DNA of 64,000 bases from an uncultured Acidobacteriaceae bacterium (GTDB lineage Bacteria > Acidobacteriota > Terriglobia > Terriglobales > Acidobacteriaceae), in the NCBI GenBank assembly GCA_963806195.1, contig CAWDXI010000002.1, positions 1,335,493-1,399,492 on the forward strand. The letters run 5' to 3'. The notes under the pieces are model-generated. The model searched no databases, had not been told where the DNA came from, and saw nothing but the letters and a program-made list of their open reading frames with translations. The stretch's first letter is position 1. Each line of letters begins with the position of its first letter. The position numbers and the translations under genes were made by a program. Shown here piece by piece: positions 21,570-29,409 of this stretch.

Positions 21570-21986
21570 ATGACTCCTTCCACCGACAAGAATGTCTTGG
21601 ATGTGCCGCCTCCGCTTCGGCGTGTTTACGAATGGTGGAAAGCGCTCTTCGTGCCCGCCACTGTTTTAGCAGCTCTTGCAGGTTACTTCTTCGGACCCGA
21701 CGTAGGGTGGGTAGTGGCGGCGCTGTGCGTCGGGTTCTTAGTTGTGCTCCACGTATTGATTTTCGTCACGGGCCGAAATCTTCGAGCCACCGACTTGGCA
21801 GAAGAATTTCTTTCGACATCGGACTACACCAATGCGGAAGAACGCCAAAAGGCGCTCCGGGAACTACGCAGTGCCAAAAGGTCCGCCAAAGTGCTCTTCG
21901 GATTCCTTTTTTTGGTAGCCGCCGCAGCGATCGTGCTGCTCTTGTACCAACCGATCTATCGCATCTTACGAACTATTGAGTATTGA
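21570..21986 (+). CDS. Hypothetical membrane protein
   Basis: The ATG at 21570 (MTPSTDKNVLD...) precedes hydrophobic helices: ALFVPATVLAALAGYFF, VGWVVAALCVGFLVVLHVLIFV and VLFGFLFLVAAAAIVLLLY. The stop lies 10 nt inside the left end of the IS630-type element, so the C-terminus may be altered by the insertion. Confidence 0.5.
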   Translation: MTPSTDKNVLDVPPPLRRVYEWWKALFVPATVLAALAGYFFGPDVGWVVAALCVGFLVVLHVLIFVTGRNLRATDLAEEFLSTSDYTNAEERQKALRELRSAKRSAKVLFGFLFLVAAAAIVLLLYQPIYRILRTIEY

Positions 21987-23066
21987 ATAATATAGTGACA
22001 GACTGCGGGATTTTGTGCTACTCTGCGTTCATGGGAAACCCTGCGGGAGTGCGGCGCGATTTTCAGAAGTTGGAAGAGCGGCGGTTGTTGGGCGCCCGAC
22101 TGTTGCGCCAGGGAATGCACCCGGCCGAGGTCGCGCGGCAAGTCGGGGTGCACCGACAGTCGGTCAGTCGCTGGGAGCGGCAACTGCAGCGGGGCGGAGT
22201 GCGGGCGCTGAAGAAAGCCGGGCGCGCCGGGCGCAAAGCGCGCTTACGCCCGGAAGACTTACGGCGCATCGAGCGCGGTCTGAAACGCGGACCGGAGGCC
22301 CTGGGGTACGAAACCAGCCTGTGGACCTCGTGGCGCGTGGCCCATCTGATCGAGCAGGAATGTAGGGTGAGGTACCACCCTTCGCAAGCTTGGCGGATTC
22401 TGCGGCAACTGGGTTGGAGCTGCCAGCGTCCGGTGGGACGGGCGCTGGAACGCGACGAGGACAAGATCCGGTTCTGGAAGCAGCAGCGTTGGCCGGAGAT
22501 TAAAAAAAAGCCCGAAAAGAGGGGCGCACCATCGTCTTCATCGACGAAAGCGGACTGAGCGAGCGCCCACACCGCTGCCGGACCTGGGCGCCACGGGGAC
22601 AGACGCCGGTGCTGCAATATCACTTCAACTGGAAGATGCTGTCGGCCATGGCCGGCGTGACCTGGTGGAACTTTTACTTTCGGCTGTTTCCCGGTGCCAT
22701 CCGCAGTCCGCAGATCATTGAGTTTCTCACGCATCTGCTGCGCCACATCCCCGGCAAGCTGCTGATCGTCTGGGATGGACTGCCGGGTCATCGCAGTCGC
22801 GCAACCTGGGAGTTCATCCGAGAGCAGCGCGGGCGCTTGTGGGTGGAGTTTCTTCCCGGTTATGCGCCGGAACTAAATCCGGTCGAGTATCTGTGGTCGC
22901 ACTGGAAGCAGCACGAGTTGCCCAACCTGTGCCCGCAGAACTTCGGGCAGTTGAGCCAATATGCTCGCCAAGCGCTCCGCCGGATGCGCAAACGGCCTAC
23001 CTTGGTGATTGCCTTCTGGCGGCAGGCAGAACTGTTTCCGCTGTAACTATATTATGCAATCCTCAA
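21976..23066 (+). mobile_element. IS630/Tc1-family insertion sequence, copy 1 (1,091 bp), flanked by a TA duplication
   Basis: The ends are TTGAGTATTGAATAATATAGTGACAG and CTGTAACTATATTATGCAATCCTCAA (imperfect inverted repeats). TA lies at 21974-75 and 23067-68. A second copy lies at 59385-60476 and differs at only about 7 positions, by eye. Confidence 0.9.
22031..23046 (+). CDS. IS630-family transposase made from two frames via a -1 frameshift at A AAA AAG (22504-22510)
   Basis: OrfA runs from ATG 22031 and carries HTH regions (MHPAEVARQVGVHRQSVSRWERQL) up to ...WPEIKKK. The -1 frame continues ARKEGRTIVFIDESGLSERPHRCRTWAPRGQTPVLQYHFNWK...LLIVWDGLPGHRS...LPGYAPELNPVEYLW, which holds the DDE residues. 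The A8G run is identical in both copies. Confidence 0.88.
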
Positions 23067-23115
23067 TAAGCAGAGCAAAAAAACAGCCAGGCCCAGCTTG
23101 CAACTGAGGTGAAGG

Positions 23116-24129
23116 ATGTCTCAGTTTCGCAAAGATGTCTTCACGGGACGATGGGTGATCGTGGCCGAAACCGAGGCGGTCCGAACCGGAAATTTCAGCT
23201 TTAAGAAATTCACCCGCGAAACCACATTTTGTCCCTTCTGCGAAACCCATGAAGCTTCTACGCCGCCGGAAATCTTCGCCCTCAGACCTGGCGGTTCGCC
23301 GGCGAATGGGCCGGGGTGGACGGTCCGCGTCGTCCCCAATTCGCAGCTTCGGCTAAGGATTGAAGGGGATCTGAGTCGAAGGCCGGAAGGTTTTCACGAC
23401 ATGATGAACGGTATAGGAGCCGATGAGGTTATCGTCGAAACGCCAAGACACGACCGCAGTCTGCATGAACTGGATGTGAACGAAGTTGCGGATGTGATCC
23501 GGACATGGGTTGCCCGCATTGTCGATCTGCAGCGGGATAAGCGCATTCGCTACGTGTTGATCTTCAAAAACCATGGCGAAGAAGCCGGCGCCCACACCAT
23601 CACCCATTCCATTTCTCAGCTCATGGCTCTCCCGGTCACTCCGCGTGTCATTAAGGCCAAGCTTATGGCTGCGCAAGACTACTACTCGCGCAAAGAGCGC
23701 TGCATATATTGCGACGTGCTGCACCAGGAACTGACAGAGCGGAAACGTCTGGTGGCCGAAAACGCCGACTTCGTGTCGCTCGCACCCTTCGCCTCACGCT
23801 CCCCATTCGAACTGGGGGTGTTCCCTAAATTTCACAGCAGCGCCTTCGGCCGCATCAGTTCCGCACAAATCGAAAACCTGGCGCAGCTCTTGCGTGATGT
23901 CTTGCAAAGACTGGACAAAGCTCTGAGTGGCCCGCCCTACAACCTAGCGCTCCAGGATCGGCCATTCCTGCGTCTTCGAGAAGGCTACTGGAAAACCATC
24001 GAAGAGGATTTCCATTGGCATCTGGAGATCCTGCCACAAGTGATTGGGCTGACGGGATTCGAGCGTGCGTCCTGGTTCTTCTACAATCCTGTTCCGCCTG
24101 AACTCGCCGCTCGATGCCTCTCGGGTTGA
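23116..24129 (+). CDS. Galactose-1-phosphate uridylyltransferase-like HIT-superfamily protein
   Basis: 337 aa: DVFTGRWVIVAETEA, the zinc-knuckle-like FCPFCETHE, WTVRVVPN, YVLIFKNHGEEAGAHTITHSISQLMALPVTP and SRSPFELGVFP. An RBS (GAGGTGAAGG) precedes the ATG. Confidence 0.8.
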   Translation: MSQFRKDVFTGRWVIVAETEAVRTGNFSFKKFTRETTFCPFCETHEASTPPEIFALRPGGSPANGPGWTVRVVPNSQLRLRIEGDLSRRPEGFHDMMNGIGADEVIVETPRHDRSLHELDVNEVADVIRTWVARIVDLQRDKRIRYVLIFKNHGEEAGAHTITHSISQLMALPVTPRVIKAKLMAAQDYYSRKERCIYCDVLHQELTERKRLVAENADFVSLAPFASRSPFELGVFPKFHSSAFGRISSAQIENLAQLLRDVLQRLDKALSGPPYNLALQDRPFLRLREGYWKTIEEDFHWHLEILPQVIGLTGFERASWFFYNPVPPELAARCLSG

Positions 24130-24209
24130 CAACGCGGTAATCTACGGTTCACGGGTCTCGCCTGACCGCTAACTAGTTCCGGCAATCTCTGTACTCAGTC
24201 GGATGATGT

Positions 24210-25268
24210 TCAGTCAACCGCCATGCGACGCAACAGTCTGAAGTCGTCGAGAAGCTTCGCTGTACCCAGCACCACACTGCACAGGGGATCGTCGGCGATG
24301 CATACCGGCAGGCCGGTTTCTTCGCGGATCCGCGTGTCAAGGTTTATCAGTAACGCACCGCCTCCTGCGAGCACGAGGCCACGGTCACTGATATCAGCGG
24401 AGAGTTCCGGCGGAGTGCGCTCCAAGGCCACACGGATTGCGCTCACGATGGCGGCCACGGATTCGTTCAATGCTTCGCGGATCTCGCTGTCATCCACGGT
24501 AATCGTCTTGGGGATGCCCTCAATGAGACTTCGGCCCTTGACCTCCATGGTCACCGGCTTCTCGACAGGAGCTGCCGACCCGATCTCGAGTTTGATCTGT
24601 TCGGCCATGCGCTCACCGATCAGCAGGTTATATTTCCGTTTCACGTAGTTCATGATGGCTTCGTCCATGTGATTGCCGGCAATGCGCAGCGATCGCGAAT
24701 AGACGATCCCAGACATTGATATGAGCGCGACGTCAGTCGTGCCGCCACCGATGTCGACAACCAAATTGCCGCCTGGCCTGGACACGGGCATACCGGCCCC
24801 AATGGCAGCCATCATCGCCTGCTCCACGAGGTGCACCTCCGCAGCCTTGGCGCGATAGGCTGAGTCTGTCACGGCGCGCCGCTCAACTTGGGTGATTTCA
24901 GAGGGGACGCTGATGATCACACGCGGATGTACCAGCGTCCTGCGTTGATGCGCCTTTTGGATGAAGTAGGCGAGCATCTTCTCCGTGACCCTGAAATCGG
25001 CGATCACCCCATCTCTTAAAGGCTTGATCACGCTGATCTTGCTCGGTGTGCGGCCTAACATCTCTTTGGCTTCCTTACCCACCGCCCGCACTTCTCCCGT
25101 ACTCTCTTCGAGCGCAACCGCTGAGGGCTCATTGACAACTATGCCCCGACCGCGGGCGTAGACGCGAGTGTTGACGGTGCCCAAATCAATCGCAAGATCC
25201 TCCGAAAACAGGCTCGCCAATGGACGCAGGTGTTCGAAGGAGATTCGCGTTGTCCACTCAGGGCGCAT
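24210..25268 (-). CDS. mreB: Rod-shape-determining actin homologue MreB
   Basis: LFSEDLAIDLGTVNTRVYARGRGIVVNEPSAVAL, IKPLRDGVIADF, VVDIGGGTTDVALISMSGIV and LAGGGALL. The ATG at 25268 gives the usual length of about 352 aa. The track ORF extends 54 codons further without homology. Confidence 0.92.
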   Translation of the reverse strand: MRPEWTTRISFEHLRPLASLFSEDLAIDLGTVNTRVYARGRGIVVNEPSAVALEESTGEVRAVGKEAKEMLGRTPSKISVIKPLRDGVIADFRVTEKMLAYFIQKAHQRRTLVHPRVIISVPSEITQVERRAVTDSAYRAKAAEVHLVEQAMMAAIGAGMPVSRPGGNLVVDIGGGTTDVALISMSGIVYSRSLRIAGNHMDEAIMNYVKRKYNLLIGERMAEQIKLEIGSAAPVEKPVTMEVKGRSLIEGIPKTITVDDSEIREALNESVAAIVSAIRVALERTPPELSADISDRGLVLAGGGALLINLDTRIREETGLPVCIADDPLCSVVLGTAKLLDDFRLLRRMAVD

Positions 25269-25858
25269 AAGACAACTGGTGCAGTTCTTACGGAACATGC
25301 AGACTTGGACGACAGCCAGTGCCGTGGAGGTCGGTGTTTCATCGCTGCATGCCGTCAACGTGTGCCAGGCGGAGCTTTCCTCAACAAGAAGCCGACGATA
25401 AATCCCATTAAAGCGATTGGGAAGGTCCATATGGCGAGCGGCAATGCCGCGTCGGCCGAGATGCCTATCTCTTCGTGAATCGTGAACAAGAAATAGGCTG
25501 AAGGTAGATTGCCGCCGAAGCGGTCACTGCCAGCCCGATGGAGAGAAAAAGACCGTGTTTGAGCGTCGGTTCCACGATAGCCCCGTCGAACTAGACTGTG
25601 CTCTCCTGTCCGAGTCGTTAGCTTCTGCAATCAGGGCAGTTGGCTCAACTTCTTCCTAACACGAGGACACACAATCTGCCGTGACCATACTCACCCAGCC
25701 CTATGAACCAGCCAGAGAAGGTTCACGTTGTCGATAAGATCGGCTTGGGCCAGGTCATTGCAATTCCATGGAGAAAGGAAGCCTAATATTGAGGAGGGCA
25801 TTTCGCACAGGAGGCTCGTCTTGAAAGGTATCCGCCGCCACAAGCGAGGAGGCTTTTC

Positions 25859-25996
25859 ATGAAGACGCTGATACATCTCAAGAAGTATGGGAACAGTTTT
25901 TTTCACGTTGACCAGCAGCATGTAGTCTTCTTCCTTGTCGCCGGTTTCGTGTTGGCGGCGCTGGTTGTTTTGGTGCTGGCTTCGTCGGCGATGTAA
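25859..25996 (+). CDS. Candidate 45-aa membrane peptide
   Basis: Below the track's apparent ~60-aa minimum ORF length. AGGAGG sits 6 nt upstream of the ATG at 25859. The product is MKTLIHLKKYGNSFFHVDQQHVVFFLVAGFVLAALVVLVLASSAM, with one C-terminal TM helix. Third-position G+C is about 69 percent, against about 58 percent for the overlapping antisense 76-aa ORF. Confidence 0.3.
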   Translation: MKTLIHLKKYGNSFFHVDQQHVVFFLVAGFVLAALVVLVLASSAM

Positions 25997-26065
25997 GCGA
26001 GAGAACTCGCTGTTGATGTCCCCTTCACATGAAGAGGCGATTCATGTTTCGTTGGAGTTGTACAC

Positions 26066-26311
26066 ATGTCCGCATTTCCCCCACAGCTCCCGTGGAGGCG
26101 TTTCGTTTGCCTTCTTCGTGACCTCGGCTATCGTCCACTGAGATCACACCGAGGAACACTGAGGCAGTTTATCTGTCCCACACGCAGCCCAAACCTAGTC
26201 TCATTTCACGAGCCGCATCCCGGCGACACTCTACACAAACCCGCCCTGTGCGACTCTCTTCGAACTGAAGCTCAGCACGATGAATTTCTTCAGCTTCTTG
26301 AGAGACATTGA
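26066..26311 (+). CDS. HicA/YcfA-like small protein
   Basis: 81 aa: LPWRRFVCLLRDLGYRPLRSHRGTLRQFICP...VSFHEPHPGDTLHKPALCDSLRTEAQHDEFLQLLERH. The shape matches HicA/YcfA (LxxLGF...GSH...HxxxxxLxxGTLxxILxxxxLxxxEFxxLL), but the GSH histidine position reads RGT. Confidence 0.6.
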   Translation: MSAFPPQLPWRRFVCLLRDLGYRPLRSHRGTLRQFICPTRSPNLVSFHEPHPGDTLHKPALCDSLRTEAQHDEFLQLLERH

Positions 26312-26361
26312 GGATCGCAATCGTTGTCCAACACACATCGACCCTTTCAGAAGGAGGAACC

Positions 26362-27252
26362 ATGCTAGGAGGAGCTAAGCCTAAAGGGATTTCGCTCCAT
26401 ATCGGATTGAATCGAGTTGACCCTATTCACTATGCAGGCTGGAAGGGAGAGCTAGGGGCCTGCGAGAACGACGCTCGTGACATGGAAACAATTGCCAGAA
26501 GCCAGGGTTTTGTCGCTCAATCGTTGCTCACGAAAGACGCAACGTCCACTGCGCTGCTGGGTCTAATCGAAAAGGCGGCGAAAGAGTTGGTCGAAGACGA
26601 CTTCTTCTTGCTGACCTACTCGGGCCACGGTGGCCAAATTAATGATGCCGGGAGCGACGAACCGGACGGGTTGGATGAAACCTGGGTGCTTTTTGACCGC
26701 CAACTGGTGGATGATGAGCTGTACGCAGCCTGGTCGATGTTTCGGCCTAGCGTACGCATCCTTGTATTGGCGGACAGCTGTAACAGTGGGACGATGACAA
26801 AAGCGACGTTGCTAGACCCTGGTCCGTACATGTCACATCTCGATGCCAGGGTGCGTGCGAGCACAGGCGCAAACCTGAGACCGAGATTTCTGCCGCCGGA
26901 CGTGCAGGCCAAGATTTACAAGGAGCGGGCGACCCTGTACGACGACATTCGCAAGAAGACCCCACGAAGAGAGAGAGTCAACGCGGAATGCAGCGTGATT
27001 CTGATCTCCGCCTGTCAAGACAACCAGGTAGCCATGGAGGGAATCAAGAATGGCATTTTCACTGAAACGTTGGTGAGAGTGTGGAACAAGGGCAGGTTCG
27101 CAGGCGGCTACCACCACTTCCGCAATGAGATTGCGAGTATGATGCCGCCGACCCAAAGCCCGAAATACACGATCATTGGCCATCGCGAGCGTGCTTTTGA
27201 ACGCCAGCGACCGTTTTCGATTATTGTGCCGCGCGCGGCCGCCGCGGCGTGA
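26362..27252 (+). CDS. Caspase-family (peptidase C14) protease, stand-alone
   Basis: The ATG at 26362 is preceded by GAAGGAGG. The catalytic dyad contexts are FLLTYSGHGGQ (His) and ILVLADSCNSGT (Cys). About 296 aa with no recognisable extra domains. Confidence 0.9.
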   Translation: MLGGAKPKGISLHIGLNRVDPIHYAGWKGELGACENDARDMETIARSQGFVAQSLLTKDATSTALLGLIEKAAKELVEDDFFLLTYSGHGGQINDAGSDEPDGLDETWVLFDRQLVDDELYAAWSMFRPSVRILVLADSCNSGTMTKATLLDPGPYMSHLDARVRASTGANLRPRFLPPDVQAKIYKERATLYDDIRKKTPRRERVNAECSVILISACQDNQVAMEGIKNGIFTETLVRVWNKGRFAGGYHHFRNEIASMMPPTQSPKYTIIGHRERAFERQRPFSIIVPRAAAAA

Positions 27253-27297
27253 ACGCCATCGAGAGTGTTTTTCTCGGGGATGTGAAGCTGGCAAGCA

Positions 27298-27564
27298 TCA
27301 AAGAAGGGCCTTGTCATCGCGGATTGTACAAATCGTGGGCCCTGCGCAAGGAGTCAGTGATCGAAACAAGTCCGGTCCGATTCGACCGTAAGAGTGCGAC
27401 ACTGTTAGGAGTTCGATTGCTTCCACTTCAGAGCTGGAGGGACTTTCCAGCGCCGTTAGTTGGAAGAGAGCGTTGGTATACGCTTCAAGTTCCGCGTCAT
27501 TGTGTATAATGTGGGGAGCGCCTTGCGCAATCATTTCCGCAGGGTTTGCGAGGCCTGTGCTCAT
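27298..27564 (-). pseudogene. Remnant of a HigA-type (XRE) antitoxin N-terminal region
   Basis: PHIIHNDAELEAYTNALFQLTALESPSSSEVEAIELLT resembles the N-terminal helix bundle of HigA-like antitoxins (I-x-x-E-x-x-Y...L..L..........E...ELL). The expected HTH part is missing or garbled. Confidence 0.4.
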
Positions 27565-27684
27565 CTTGTTCCAAACCTCCCGTGTAGCTGCTTGTCGTCT
27601 TCTGACGAACCCAATTCATGGGATTAGCCGACTCGTCGCAAGGGATAAGCCCATAGCGTTGTCCGTGTTTGTAGACCAAATTCA

Positions 27685-29409
27685 TCACACGCCGGATTTT
27701 GTCCAGAGTGGGGTTCTCAAGCCGAGCCCAAACTCCTCGATGGAAATGTCTCTTATGCGGAACTTCTGAATTTTACCCGTCACGGTCATGGGAAAATCGT
27801 CAGTGATTTTCAAATAGTGGGGTATCTTGAAATCGGCAATCTTTCCCTTACAGAAGGCCTTCAGTTCGTCCATTGCTAAAGTACAGCCGGGTTTCAATTT
27901 GATCCACGCGGCCGCCACTTCTCCAAATTTACGGTCAGGCACGCCCACTATTTGTACGCCCACGATCGCCGGGTGAGAGTAGAGGAATTCCTCCACCTCG
28001 CGCGGATAGATATTTTCGCCGCCGCGGATGATCACGTCCTTGGCGCGACCGGTGATCCTGAAATATCCTCGCACATCGAGAACTGCGATGTCGCCGCTGT
28101 GGAGCCAACTGTCTTCGTCGATTGCCTCTTTGGTCGCCTCGGGATTCTTGTAGTAACCCTTCATGACGAGATATCCCCGCGTGCACAGTTCGCCCGCGGT
28201 CCCGATGGGAACCGTCTCCTTTGTCAGGGGATCAATAATTTTGACTTCCGTATGCGGAAGAACTTTACCAACAGTCTCGACCCTCAATTCGATCGGATCG
28301 TCGGGCGTGGTTTGCGTAATACCGGGGGACGATTCCGTCAAACCATAAACGATGGTGAGGTCGCGGCAGTGCATGTCGTGGACCACCCGCTTCATGATTT
28401 CGACCGGACACGGCGAGCCTGCCATAATGCCAGTGCGCAACGACTGTAGGTTGAACTCAGGAAATCTAGGATGTTCTAATTCCTCGATGAACATCGTTGG
28501 AACGCCGTGCAATGCAGTGCAGCGCTCCTCTTGTACGGCCAACAAAGTCAGCAGGGGATCGAACGAGGCCGCAGGGATCACCATCGTCGCGGCACTCGCC
28601 ACACACGCCATGTTCGCTAACACCATTCCAAAACAGTGGTAAAAGGGCACGGGAATGCAGAGGCGATCCCGATGCGCGAAACGCATCGCGTTGGCGACTA
28701 GTTGACCATTGTTCGCGATGTTCCGATGAGAAAGCATTGCGCCCTTCGGCCGTCCGGTGGTGCCGGAAGTGTATTGAATGTTCACCGCATCGTCGATGTG
28801 CAGGGCGGATTCCCGCTCCCTCAGGAGATTGCACGAAACCGACTCACCGGCGGCCAAGAGATTGGACCAGAGCATGGTTCCGGGAACGGGCGAAACTCCC
28901 AGAAAAATTAGGTTCTTGAGGTCGGGCAGGGAGAGCGATGAACGGTTTCCATGCTCACGGGCTGCCAAATCTCCACAAATTTCTTGCAACGTTGTAACGT
29001 AATTAATGTCGCGGAATCCCTCGGCAAACAGCAGGGTCTGGGTTTCAGACTGCCGCAGTACATGTTTCAATTCGAAAGCCCGGTTCGCGGGGTTAATGTT
29101 CACCAGTATGGCGCCAACCTTCGCGGTGGCAAACTGGGTTATTACCCATTCGGCACAATTGGGTGACCAGATCCCCACCCGATCCCCTTTCTTGACCCCG
29201 AGATGCAGCAAGCCTCGGGCGGTGAGGTCGACTTGTTCCAGGAATTGCCGGTAGGAATAGCGCTTCTTCTGGTGGCATGAGATCAGGCAGTCCTCGTTCG
29301 GATGCTTGTTGGCCGAATCGTCGAGAACTTCACCTATGCATTTGTCCAGCAGAGCCACTTCAGAGCTACCGCAAACATAGCTCAAGCAATCGTTAGTTTG
29401 GAATGCCAT
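27685..29409 (-). CDS. AMP-dependent acyl-CoA synthetase/ligase
   Basis: 574 aa: NIQYTSGTTGRPKGAMLSHRN (AMP-binding motif), YGLTESSPG, GELCTRGYLVMKGYY, WLHSGDIA, GRAKDVIIRGGENIYPREVEE and GKIQKF. Confidence 0.92.
   Translation of the reverse strand: MAFQTNDCLSYVCGSSEVALLDKCIGEVLDDSANKHPNEDCLISCHQKKRYSYRQFLEQVDLTARGLLHLGVKKGDRVGIWSPNCAEWVITQFATAKVGAILVNINPANRAFELKHVLRQSETQTLLFAEGFRDINYVTTLQEICGDLAAREHGNRSSLSLPDLKNLIFLGVSPVPGTMLWSNLLAAGESVSCNLLRERESALHIDDAVNIQYTSGTTGRPKGAMLSHRNIANNGQLVANAMRFAHRDRLCIPVPFYHCFGMVLANMACVASAATMVIPAASFDPLLTLLAVQEERCTALHGVPTMFIEELEHPRFPEFNLQSLRTGIMAGSPCPVEIMKRVVHDMHCRDLTIVYGLTESSPGITQTTPDDPIELRVETVGKVLPHTEVKIIDPLTKETVPIGTAGELCTRGYLVMKGYYKNPEATKEAIDEDSWLHSGDIAVLDVRGYFRITGRAKDVIIRGGENIYPREVEEFLYSHPAIVGVQIVGVPDRKFGEVAAAWIKLKPGCTLAMDELKAFCKGKIADFKIPHYLKITDDFPMTVTGKIQKFRIRDISIEEFGLGLRTPLWTKSGV

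Follow-up and report, generated by a model that had tools for sequence, protein, structure and literature searches.

The DNA analysed here is a stretch of 64,000 nucleotides (nt) from an uncultured Acidobacteriaceae bacterium, which we call the window and whose positions serve as coordinates throughout. It carries three co-oriented, closely set open reading frames (orfs), encoding a peptide of 45 amino acids (aa) that we call pep45, an 81-aa HicA-like protein, and a 296-aa stand-alone peptidase C14 (an orthocaspase, referred to below as the caspase). Comparison with related loci supports a view in which the pep45 and HicA-like genes form a tightly conserved pair among certain acidobacteria from soil, and the association of the caspase with this pair is ancient but loose. 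All three orfs are real, as judged from orf calls and ribosome-binding sites—GGAGG 11 nt before the pep45 ATG, GGAG 12 nt before that of the HicA-like gene, and GGAGG 9 nt before that of the caspase—and their positions and spacing, with intergenic gaps of 69 nt and 50 nt, are as described in an initial annotation of this DNA. The caspase length is counted from an ATG within a 314-aa orf that starts with TTG. Coordinates of the features are collected in Table 1.

A promoter scan of positions 25200-27700 returned no sigma-70-like site, and a scan of the same interval for terminators returned six terminator-like sites, one of them inside pep45, where 2.7 are expected; both scans were judged uninformative. 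A search of Rfam at E-values up to 1 gave no match in 25300-27700. The caspase is probably co-transcribed with the two upstream genes in the window, because the gap preceding it is 50 nt long, its Shine-Dalgarno (SD) sequence is strong, and no terminator-like site was placed in that gap by the scan.

The peptide and HicA-like genes

The Kyte-Doolittle hydropathy of pep45 averages 3.25 over residues 22-40, as expected of a single C-terminal transmembrane helix, and the 22 N-terminal residues are basic, with three Lys/Arg and three His. A peptide with a single C-terminal helix is what the initial annotation had proposed. pep45 is a genuine gene: its homologues keep a near-constant length of 45 aa, the median ratio of nonsynonymous to synonymous substitution rates (dN/dS) is 0.22 (385 pairs, 29 loci), and the entropies of the three codon positions are 0.51, 0.40 and 0.93, third positions being about twice as variable as first and second ones. 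The consensus is MKTLIHLKRHGDSYFHLHPQHAxFSLVASFVLAVLVVLxLVSSAR, with H6, K8, G11 and F15 nearly invariant. No family match was found in Pfam, NCBIfam, PHROGs or PADLOC, and the best Atlas matches are to unnamed clusters at 0.88-0.89, under the level that counts as more than a lead.

Two sets of loci were compared with the window, one seeded with the caspase (the best 80 of 258 genome loci) and one seeded with a profile of the HicA-like protein (the best 80 of 116 metagenome loci). Where a HicA-like gene is present with at least 230 nt of upstream sequence, a peptide profile identifies a pep45 homologue 5' of it in 83 of 87 loci; among the loci examined, the same profile has no match in any that lack the HicA-like gene. 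The spacer between the two genes falls into two length classes in related loci, 48-50 nt or 66-85 nt, and an alignment of 19 such spacers shows no conserved RNA fold (RNAalifold -1.36 kcal/mol, zero compensatory pairs). Three runs from a single study of peat RNA libraries have contigs, belonging to close relatives, that extend from pep45 over the spacer and either into or past the HicA-like gene, as exemplified by record 1 (corresponding to 25931-26358) and record 8 (25812-26141). Small shares (0.06), in peat and permafrost metatranscriptomes of relatives, were all that was found among RNA runs, and the contigs report presence and bridging, not ends, strand or level, stretches without coverage being uninformative; the bridging contigs are compatible with a single pep45/HicA-like transcript, short of proof. 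Complex prediction with the pep45 and HicA-like alignments of locus L087 scored 0.00 in both runs, with controls not folded, and carries no weight either way.

The 81-aa protein is predicted to have the HicA fold. Its AlphaFold2 (AF2) model has a predicted local distance difference test (pLDDT) score of 79.7 and shows the helix, three strands and helices of this fold (H10-20, E32-36, E44-48, H58-66), an alpha-beta-beta-beta-alpha arrangement resembling the double-stranded RNA-binding domain. The five top-ranking Foldseek matches are 1WHZ, 5YRZ_B, 6G26_E, 6G26_F and 4C26, with target-normalised TM-scores of 0.52-0.77 and weak E-values of 0.02-0.2. A broad family profile (A2) aligns the protein to 1WHZ, 6G26 and 4C26 at an E-value of about 0.008; a narrow profile (A1) found nothing relevant among solved structures, the HicA structures being reached by A2 only. 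The window protein scores 17.5 bits with Pfam HicA_toxin (PF07927), under the 27-bit cut-off, and its orthologues P0016 and P0036 score 28.9 and 27.0 bits, with a relative in genome G008 at 31.6 bits. The predicted fold and the profile alignment agree with the HicA/YcfA-like identity assigned by the initial annotation. The low Pfam score of the window protein coincides with a compensated frameshift, which would explain it: deletions of 2 nt after 26262 and 1 nt after 26278, 17 nt apart and absent from five aligned relatives, alter about residues 65-70. Either genuine decay or a mistake in the assembly could account for this frameshift.

The subfamily to which this protein belongs is small. A word-based search finds 50 close relatives, mostly 82 aa long and 56-83% identical, some of which are labelled HicA-family toxin by their sources, and a search of 1.84 billion proteins gives 121 cluster representatives at E-values up to 1e-3; viral contigs yielded no relative of the protein. 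The gene has a dN/dS of 0.20. According to the initial annotation, the usual GSH triplet of HicA reads RGT in this protein. The histidine is indeed missing, but profile alignment with 1WHZ, 6G26 and 4C26 places the triplet at G30-T31-L32, with Leu32 at the histidine site. The equivalent of this site, His24, is His in 1WHZ and Ala in 6G26 and 4C26, both of which are mutant structures. In Burkholderia pseudomallei HicA, His24 is essential for toxicity, and H24A and G22C both abolish it (PMC3969222). The residue at the histidine site is Leu, Val or Met within the clade studied here and Ala, Arg or Gly in wider relatives; G30 is invariant, and an F-H-E-P-H motif is conserved instead of the histidine.

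The absence of a HicB gene next to the HicA-like gene, remarked upon initially, is upheld: none is found among the orfs of 22-31 kb, and the genome's PF15919 matches lie on contigs C3 and C4 only, where they form two canonical hicAB loci, PF05534 not having been searched genome-wide. Within the studied clade the slot 5' of the HicA-like gene is occupied by the peptide gene. More distant relatives have other neighbours. In two of 36 same-genus genomes a HicA-like relative with 32-39% identity directly follows a gene of 117 aa that matches HicB-like DUF1902 weakly, and has an IS1595 transposase beside it, and a draw of 400 genomes of the phylum has strong HicA-like matches (58-101 bits) in three only, two of which are followed by a PF05534 HicB gene. 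Because these outgroup relatives adjoin HicB-family or HicB-like genes, the His-less subfamily is placed with its root among ordinary hicAB/hicBA modules.

The caspase and its association with the pair

The caspase is a Pfam Peptidase_C14 protein (E-value 5.6e-20; 72.5 bits versus a cut-off of 21.4) and aligns along its entire length with Geobacter sulfurreducens GSU0716 at about 50% identity (PDB 3BIJ; E-value 9.5e-81 over residues 7-288). Its AF2 model (pLDDT 86.9; predicted TM-score, pTM, 0.88) matches 3BIJ with an E-value of 5e-34 and TM-scores of 0.84/0.93, and the structure matches that come next are metacaspases of plants, yeast and trypanosomes, which indicates a caspase-hemoglobinase fold. 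His89 (in YSGHGG) and Asp138, Ser139 and Cys140 (in DSCNSG) are invariant in 30 homologues, confirming the intact His and Cys motifs reported earlier, and the H89 and C140 motifs align with those of GSU0716 and yeast Yca1. Codon 141 (26782-26784), next to the catalytic Cys, encodes Asn; His stands there in at least 90% of the 30 homologues, including the genome's second copy. The caspase thus belongs to a recognised family of stand-alone orthocaspases whose function is uncharacterised. GSU0716 serves as a comparison protein in the literature, and orthocaspases are expected to cleave after Arg or Lys (PMC6426788).

A caspase tree groups the Terriglobia proteins in a single clade (19 rows, support 99), 14 of them HicA-linked, and it is solely in this clade that the HicA-like pair precedes the gene. 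PADLOC-DB 2.0 gives a weak match to the caspase alone (18.6 bits, E-value 2e-4) and none to pep45 or the HicA-like protein. Distant caspases of the GSU0716 type in other phyla (L036, L070, L078, L028, L060) repeatedly adjoin genes for large DUF7379/CHAT proteins, a second C14 gene, or genes for LCAT/PGAP1-like hydrolases.

Thirteen foreign loci among the 80 of the caspase-seeded set carry the HicA-like gene, and in all 13 it is directly 5' of a close caspase homologue, so the co-occurrence that the initial annotation proposed to check is conserved. All 13 are among the 19 Terriglobia loci with a caspase identity of 69% or more. The remaining six comprise two with too little upstream sequence (L019, L020) and four (L012, L016, L018, L022) in which the caspase is conserved and at least 1.4 kb of upstream sequence holds neither small gene, an outcome that the initial annotation had named as refuting its reading. 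Nucleotide homology with the window starts only 11-16 nt before the caspase ATG in L012, L016 and L018, at the caspase's own SD sequence, and the genomes of L016, L018 and L022, whose completeness is not reported, have the caspase and no HicA-like match anywhere. The HicA-like gene is absent from all 61 of the more distant caspase loci, which come from many phyla and show 41-55% identity.

The association is likewise incomplete when viewed from the pair. In the HicA-seeded set, 56 of the 80 loci have at least 1300 nt of downstream sequence; the caspase is present in 30, represented by its first 41 codons only in three, and absent from 23. A class II aldolase gene (Pfam 3.4e-43) stands between the HicA-like gene and the caspase in eight of the 30, and in caspase-less loci the downstream genes are heterogeneous. 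An intact or decayed gene of this class II aldolase/adducin family occupies the same place in L008 (5246-5965), L010 (5233-5871) and eight metagenome loci, and remnants of it are seen in L006 and several caspase-less loci. Some caspase-less loci also have a second, more divergent HicA-like paralog (HicA_toxin, 22.9 bits) about 1.8 kb 3' of the pair, behind a 151-aa orf of no known family, as in L128 (2225-2928, minus strand) and L136 (2312-3015, minus strand).

A tree of the peptide and HicA-like region was built with 90 rows, 76 of which could be scored for the caspase (52 with, 24 without). Caspase presence changes at least six times on this tree, with at least four changes forced by well-supported branches, as compared with a mean of 20.5 for shuffled labels; since both deep branches have the caspase, the most economical interpretation is a linked ancestor from which the caspase was lost repeatedly. 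The HicA-like gene has a dN/dS of 0.186 in the presence of the caspase (40 sequences) versus 0.192 in its absence (15 distinct sequences). From this equal constraint, together with the caspase-less and caspase-only loci, it follows that the HicA-like protein cannot depend obligatorily on the caspase as its antidote or controller. In two loci (L013, L076) the trio is kept where the mreB side, upstream of pep45, has been replaced by other DNA, and the small genes and caspase are likewise kept after such replacement in L103, L137, L152 and L154; L021, with its mreB side also replaced, retains the HicA-like gene and the caspase, and the peptide gene was not found there.

The surrounding block and its mobile setting

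The three genes are part of a 4.2-kb block that is present a second time in the same genome, 126 kb away (G000:C2, about 1484979-1489190; L005 1979-6190), at 83.4% identity over 4226 nt. The caspase of the second copy has one in-frame TAG, and its galT is broken. The window copy is closest to L087 or L006 and the second copy to L011, so that the two are not the product of a recent internal duplication. The caspase was found in none of 60 related genomes (36 of the same genus and 24 of the same order), nor was a close HicA-like gene. IS630 copies abut both blocks, and synteny with other genomes stops near 27402, beyond which lies a tyrosine recombinase fragment that matches the N-terminal part of a Phage_integrase orf (271 aa) at another site of this genome. 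The differing kin of the copies, the absence from relatives, the IS630 elements at both copies and the synteny break with its recombinase fragment point to horizontal arrival of the whole block. In the second copy, a putative group II intron-type reverse transcriptase orf, read from the sequence, is situated between the IS630 halves.

Table 1. Features of the caspase locus and its surroundings, in window coordinates.
Feature	Position	Strand	Evidence
IS630-type element, HTH and DDE_3 orfs, abutting the block	21983-23046	+	Pfam; 96.7% identical copy beside the second block
4.2-kb block: galT-like gene, mreB paralog, two-transmembrane-helix gene, pep45, HicA-like gene, caspase	23067-27254		Two copies in this genome
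MreB paralog, divergent from the pep45 operon	24210-25268	-	Pfam MreB_Mbl 9.7e-139
Conserved gene for a 73-aa protein with two transmembrane helices, 5' of the mreB paralog, frameshifted in the window	25358-25575	-	tblastn
pep45, 45-aa tail-anchored peptide orf	25859-25996	+	Orf call, ribosome-binding site, hydropathy, homologues, dN/dS
pep45/HicA-like spacer, 69 nt, with GGAG ribosome-binding site	25997-26065	+	Sequence
Predicted HicA-fold protein, 81 aa, Leu32 at the catalytic-His site	26066-26311	+	Pfam, AF2, Foldseek, profile alignment
Stand-alone peptidase C14 (orthocaspase) of the GSU0716/3BIJ type, 296 aa, His89/Cys140 dyad	26362-27252	+	Pfam, 3BIJ match, AF2
Tyrosine recombinase fragment	27497-27688	-	61% identity to Phage_integrase orf N-terminus

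The initial annotation had depicted this region as a patch of decayed mobile DNA. Pfam recovers both orfs of the IS630 element on the left, and the integrase-like fragment on the right is substantiated by its match within the genome; the genes themselves, however, sit in a block with a galT-like gene and an mreB paralog, and no defence island is recognised. A supposed antitoxin fragment, the 88-aa orf at 27298-27564 on the minus strand, could not be confirmed, having no match in Pfam, PADLOC or PHROG and only itself as a match in the genome. This orf straddles the synteny break near 27402, and its C-terminal part overlaps sequence that is conserved 3' of the caspase elsewhere. In most other loci a Hsp20-like gene (DUF2934 and HSP20) lies 3' of the caspase; it is missing from the window.

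On the other side of pep45, the 73-aa gene has tblastn matches in 49 related loci, and in the window its residues 1-25 and 27-73 are in different frames. Besides fragments, full MreB genes number three in the genome (100, 91 and 77% identity), the other two being at G000:C2:1486122-1487180 and 3711829-3712848. Five other Terriglobia genomes have a canonical MreB copy (77-79%) and the paralog, which is a fragment in one of them; the paralog is lineage-specific.

Interpretation of the locus

We propose that the functional unit is a two-gene cassette of pep45 and the HicA-fold protein, derived from hicAB/hicBA modules, in which the peptide modulates the HicA-like protein and to which the caspase is a facultative neighbour; we assign this reading a probability of about 0.5. 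The cassette would have descended from hicAB/hicBA stock with loss of HicB and of the canonical catalytic His, the pep45 gene taking the position that the HicB antitoxin holds in relatives, and a GSU0716-type orthocaspase would have joined it early in one Terriglobia lineage. The HicA-like protein would bind RNA and have little or no RNase activity, and the 22 cytoplasmic N-terminal residues of membrane-anchored pep45 would hold or modulate it. Where an Arg/Lys-directed caspase is present it may act on the pair, for example by cutting the basic tail of the peptide, much as MaOC1 does with a ParD-like antitoxin, and the pair would work without it.

Several known systems resemble parts of this arrangement. 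With HicAB/HicBA modules (PF07927; 1WHZ, 4C26, 6G26, 5YRZ, 6HPB) the cassette shares the predicted fold, profile similarity, orthologues that pass the Pfam cut-off, and outgroup hicAB/hicBA pairs; it differs in that no HicB is seen nearby, Leu replaces the essential His, a 45-aa membrane peptide is encoded upstream, and a conserved chromosomal block surrounds the cassette. A survey by Gerdes describes 14 genetic contexts of HicA, and its main text makes no mention of a caspase, peptidase, protease or transmembrane protein, although its supplements could hold cases (PMC10865869). Literature searches on HicA with caspase-family proteins, HicA with small membrane proteins, and Acidobacteria with metacaspases returned no description of the arrangement. 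The MaOC1 orthocaspase of Microcystis aeruginosa PCC 7806 cleaves a ParD-like antitoxin encoded next door (PMC7935541), and there too a C14 orthocaspase gene adjoins a gene pair of toxin-antitoxin type; the MaOC1 module as reported differs in having a ParE toxin rather than HicA, the protease gene first, and a conventional protein antitoxin, whereas the caspase linkage described here is facultative and cleavage of either small protein would be hypothetical. GSU0716, a structural-genomics orthocaspase of unknown function, is similarly a stand-alone protein of about 290 aa with the His/Cys dyad and the same fold, but the Terriglobia proteins make up a clade of their own and they alone are preceded by the HicA-like pair. 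Small single-transmembrane proteins and type I toxin peptides share with pep45 its size and single hydrophobic helix; they are unlike it in that the N-terminal motif of pep45 is conserved and that it is partnered by a gene for a protein instead of an antisense RNA.

The initial annotation had envisaged a three-part toxin-antitoxin or abortive-infection-like system in which the HicA-like protein and the membrane peptide are activated by the caspase or keep it in check, and this is supported in part. What stands of this proposal is the co-occurrence and a trio that is the inferred ancestral state, the caspase being found in 52 of 76 scored loci with both deep branches included; the trio is also kept where the mreB side is replaced, the window has an operon-like layout without a terminator-like site in the 50-nt gap, its copy lies between IS630 and an integrase fragment, and a type II antitoxin that is the target of an orthocaspase provides a precedent (PMC7935541). 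What does not stand is the caspase as a fixed component, since only the pep45/HicA-like pair is tightly conserved: at least 4-6 losses of the caspase have left the constraint on the HicA-like gene unrelaxed, the caspase turns up without the pair in four loci and three genomes, and it is separated from the HicA-like gene by a metabolic gene in 8 of 30 loci, and there is no PADLOC system match and no relative in viral contigs. We therefore consider a three-part system improbable. A variant based on the ancestral trio, in which the membrane peptide would be the tethering 'antitoxin' of a HicB-less HicA—a fifteenth HicA context—and an Arg/Lys-specific orthocaspase would cut the tail and release the HicA-like protein, strikes us as a similarly long shot. 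Also possible, but unlikely, is that three unrelated genes with no functional tie have simply been inherited, and occasionally transferred, within one block. The galT-like gene, the mreB paralog and the Hsp20-like gene are conserved nearby at similar identity, the clade is narrow, and the region 3' of the HicA-like gene is variable, all of which would be expected of plain synteny; set against it are the pairing of pep45 with the HicA-like gene in 83 of 87 loci at fixed spacing with both flanks varying, the failure to find pep45 without the HicA-like gene in the loci examined, and the RNA-library contigs that bridge the two.

Two other roles for the small genes were considered. Small size and one hydrophobic helix are the general shape of small membrane toxins, and pep45, with 45 aa and a single very hydrophobic helix, could be a toxic, type I-like membrane-damaging peptide for which the HicA-fold protein is an RNA-level regulator or antidote, the HicA fold being an RNA-binding fold (PMC3969222). 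We regard this as very unlikely: the Rfam search of 25300-27700 found no antisense RNA or other element, the spacer lacks conserved structure, and the conserved part of the peptide is its cytoplasmic N-terminal motif (H6, K8, G11, F15), which suggests a binding surface and not a pore former. The presence of the divergent mreB paralog and the gene for a protein with two transmembrane helices in most loci with enough upstream sequence raises the idea of an envelope or morphogenesis module that unites these with pep45 and the HicA-like protein. Such a module is highly doubtful, given that the small genes occur without the mreB side in L013, L076, L100, L103, L137, L152 and L154, that the HicA-like gene, with no peptide gene found, does so in L021, and that the gene for the two-helix protein is broken in the window and the pair is intact.

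The proposal of a two-gene cassette has points against it as well. In all loci save L013, L014 and L015 (46-64%) and L021 (52%), identity of the HicA-like protein is 65-85%, so that the comparison covers one narrow clade of non-independent loci in which shared ancestry alone can hold two adjacent small genes together. Binding between the two proteins, toxicity and RNA binding are all predictions. The His-less subfamily pairs with HicB in outgroups, and the protein may accordingly be an active toxin by way of other residues, such as those of the F-H-E-P-H motif. Absence of the caspase was judged within 1.3-4 kb of short metagenome contigs, and the gene could sit elsewhere; the three genomes that lack the HicA-like gene are metagenome-assembled and may be incomplete. 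An ancestral trio that survived several upstream rearrangements would also fit a functional tie that is real but dispensable. Lastly, the window copy is mildly damaged (the HicA-like frameshift, H141N, and the frameshifted gene for the two-helix protein), and it may be decaying or contain assembly errors.

To our knowledge, the accepted view of HicA proteins is that they are RNase toxins and that HicB invariably neutralises them. In this lineage, by contrast, a protein of the predicted HicA fold with neither the essential His nor HicB is maintained by purifying selection next to a 45-aa membrane peptide that lacks annotation. The locus would thus represent a new, HicB-less context for HicA with a tail-anchored peptide, and its strongest new point would be the pairing of the peptide with the HicA-like protein rather than the caspase. 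Widespread GSU0716-type orthocaspases, which have no assigned function, gain a defined and testable candidate substrate pair, one that, on the comparative data, does not require the protease. If pep45 and the HicA-like protein do interact, this would be a new form of control of a toxin-derived RNA-binding protein, by membrane tethering, and would provide a named partner for a member of a class of small proteins whose genes are usually missed by gene callers.

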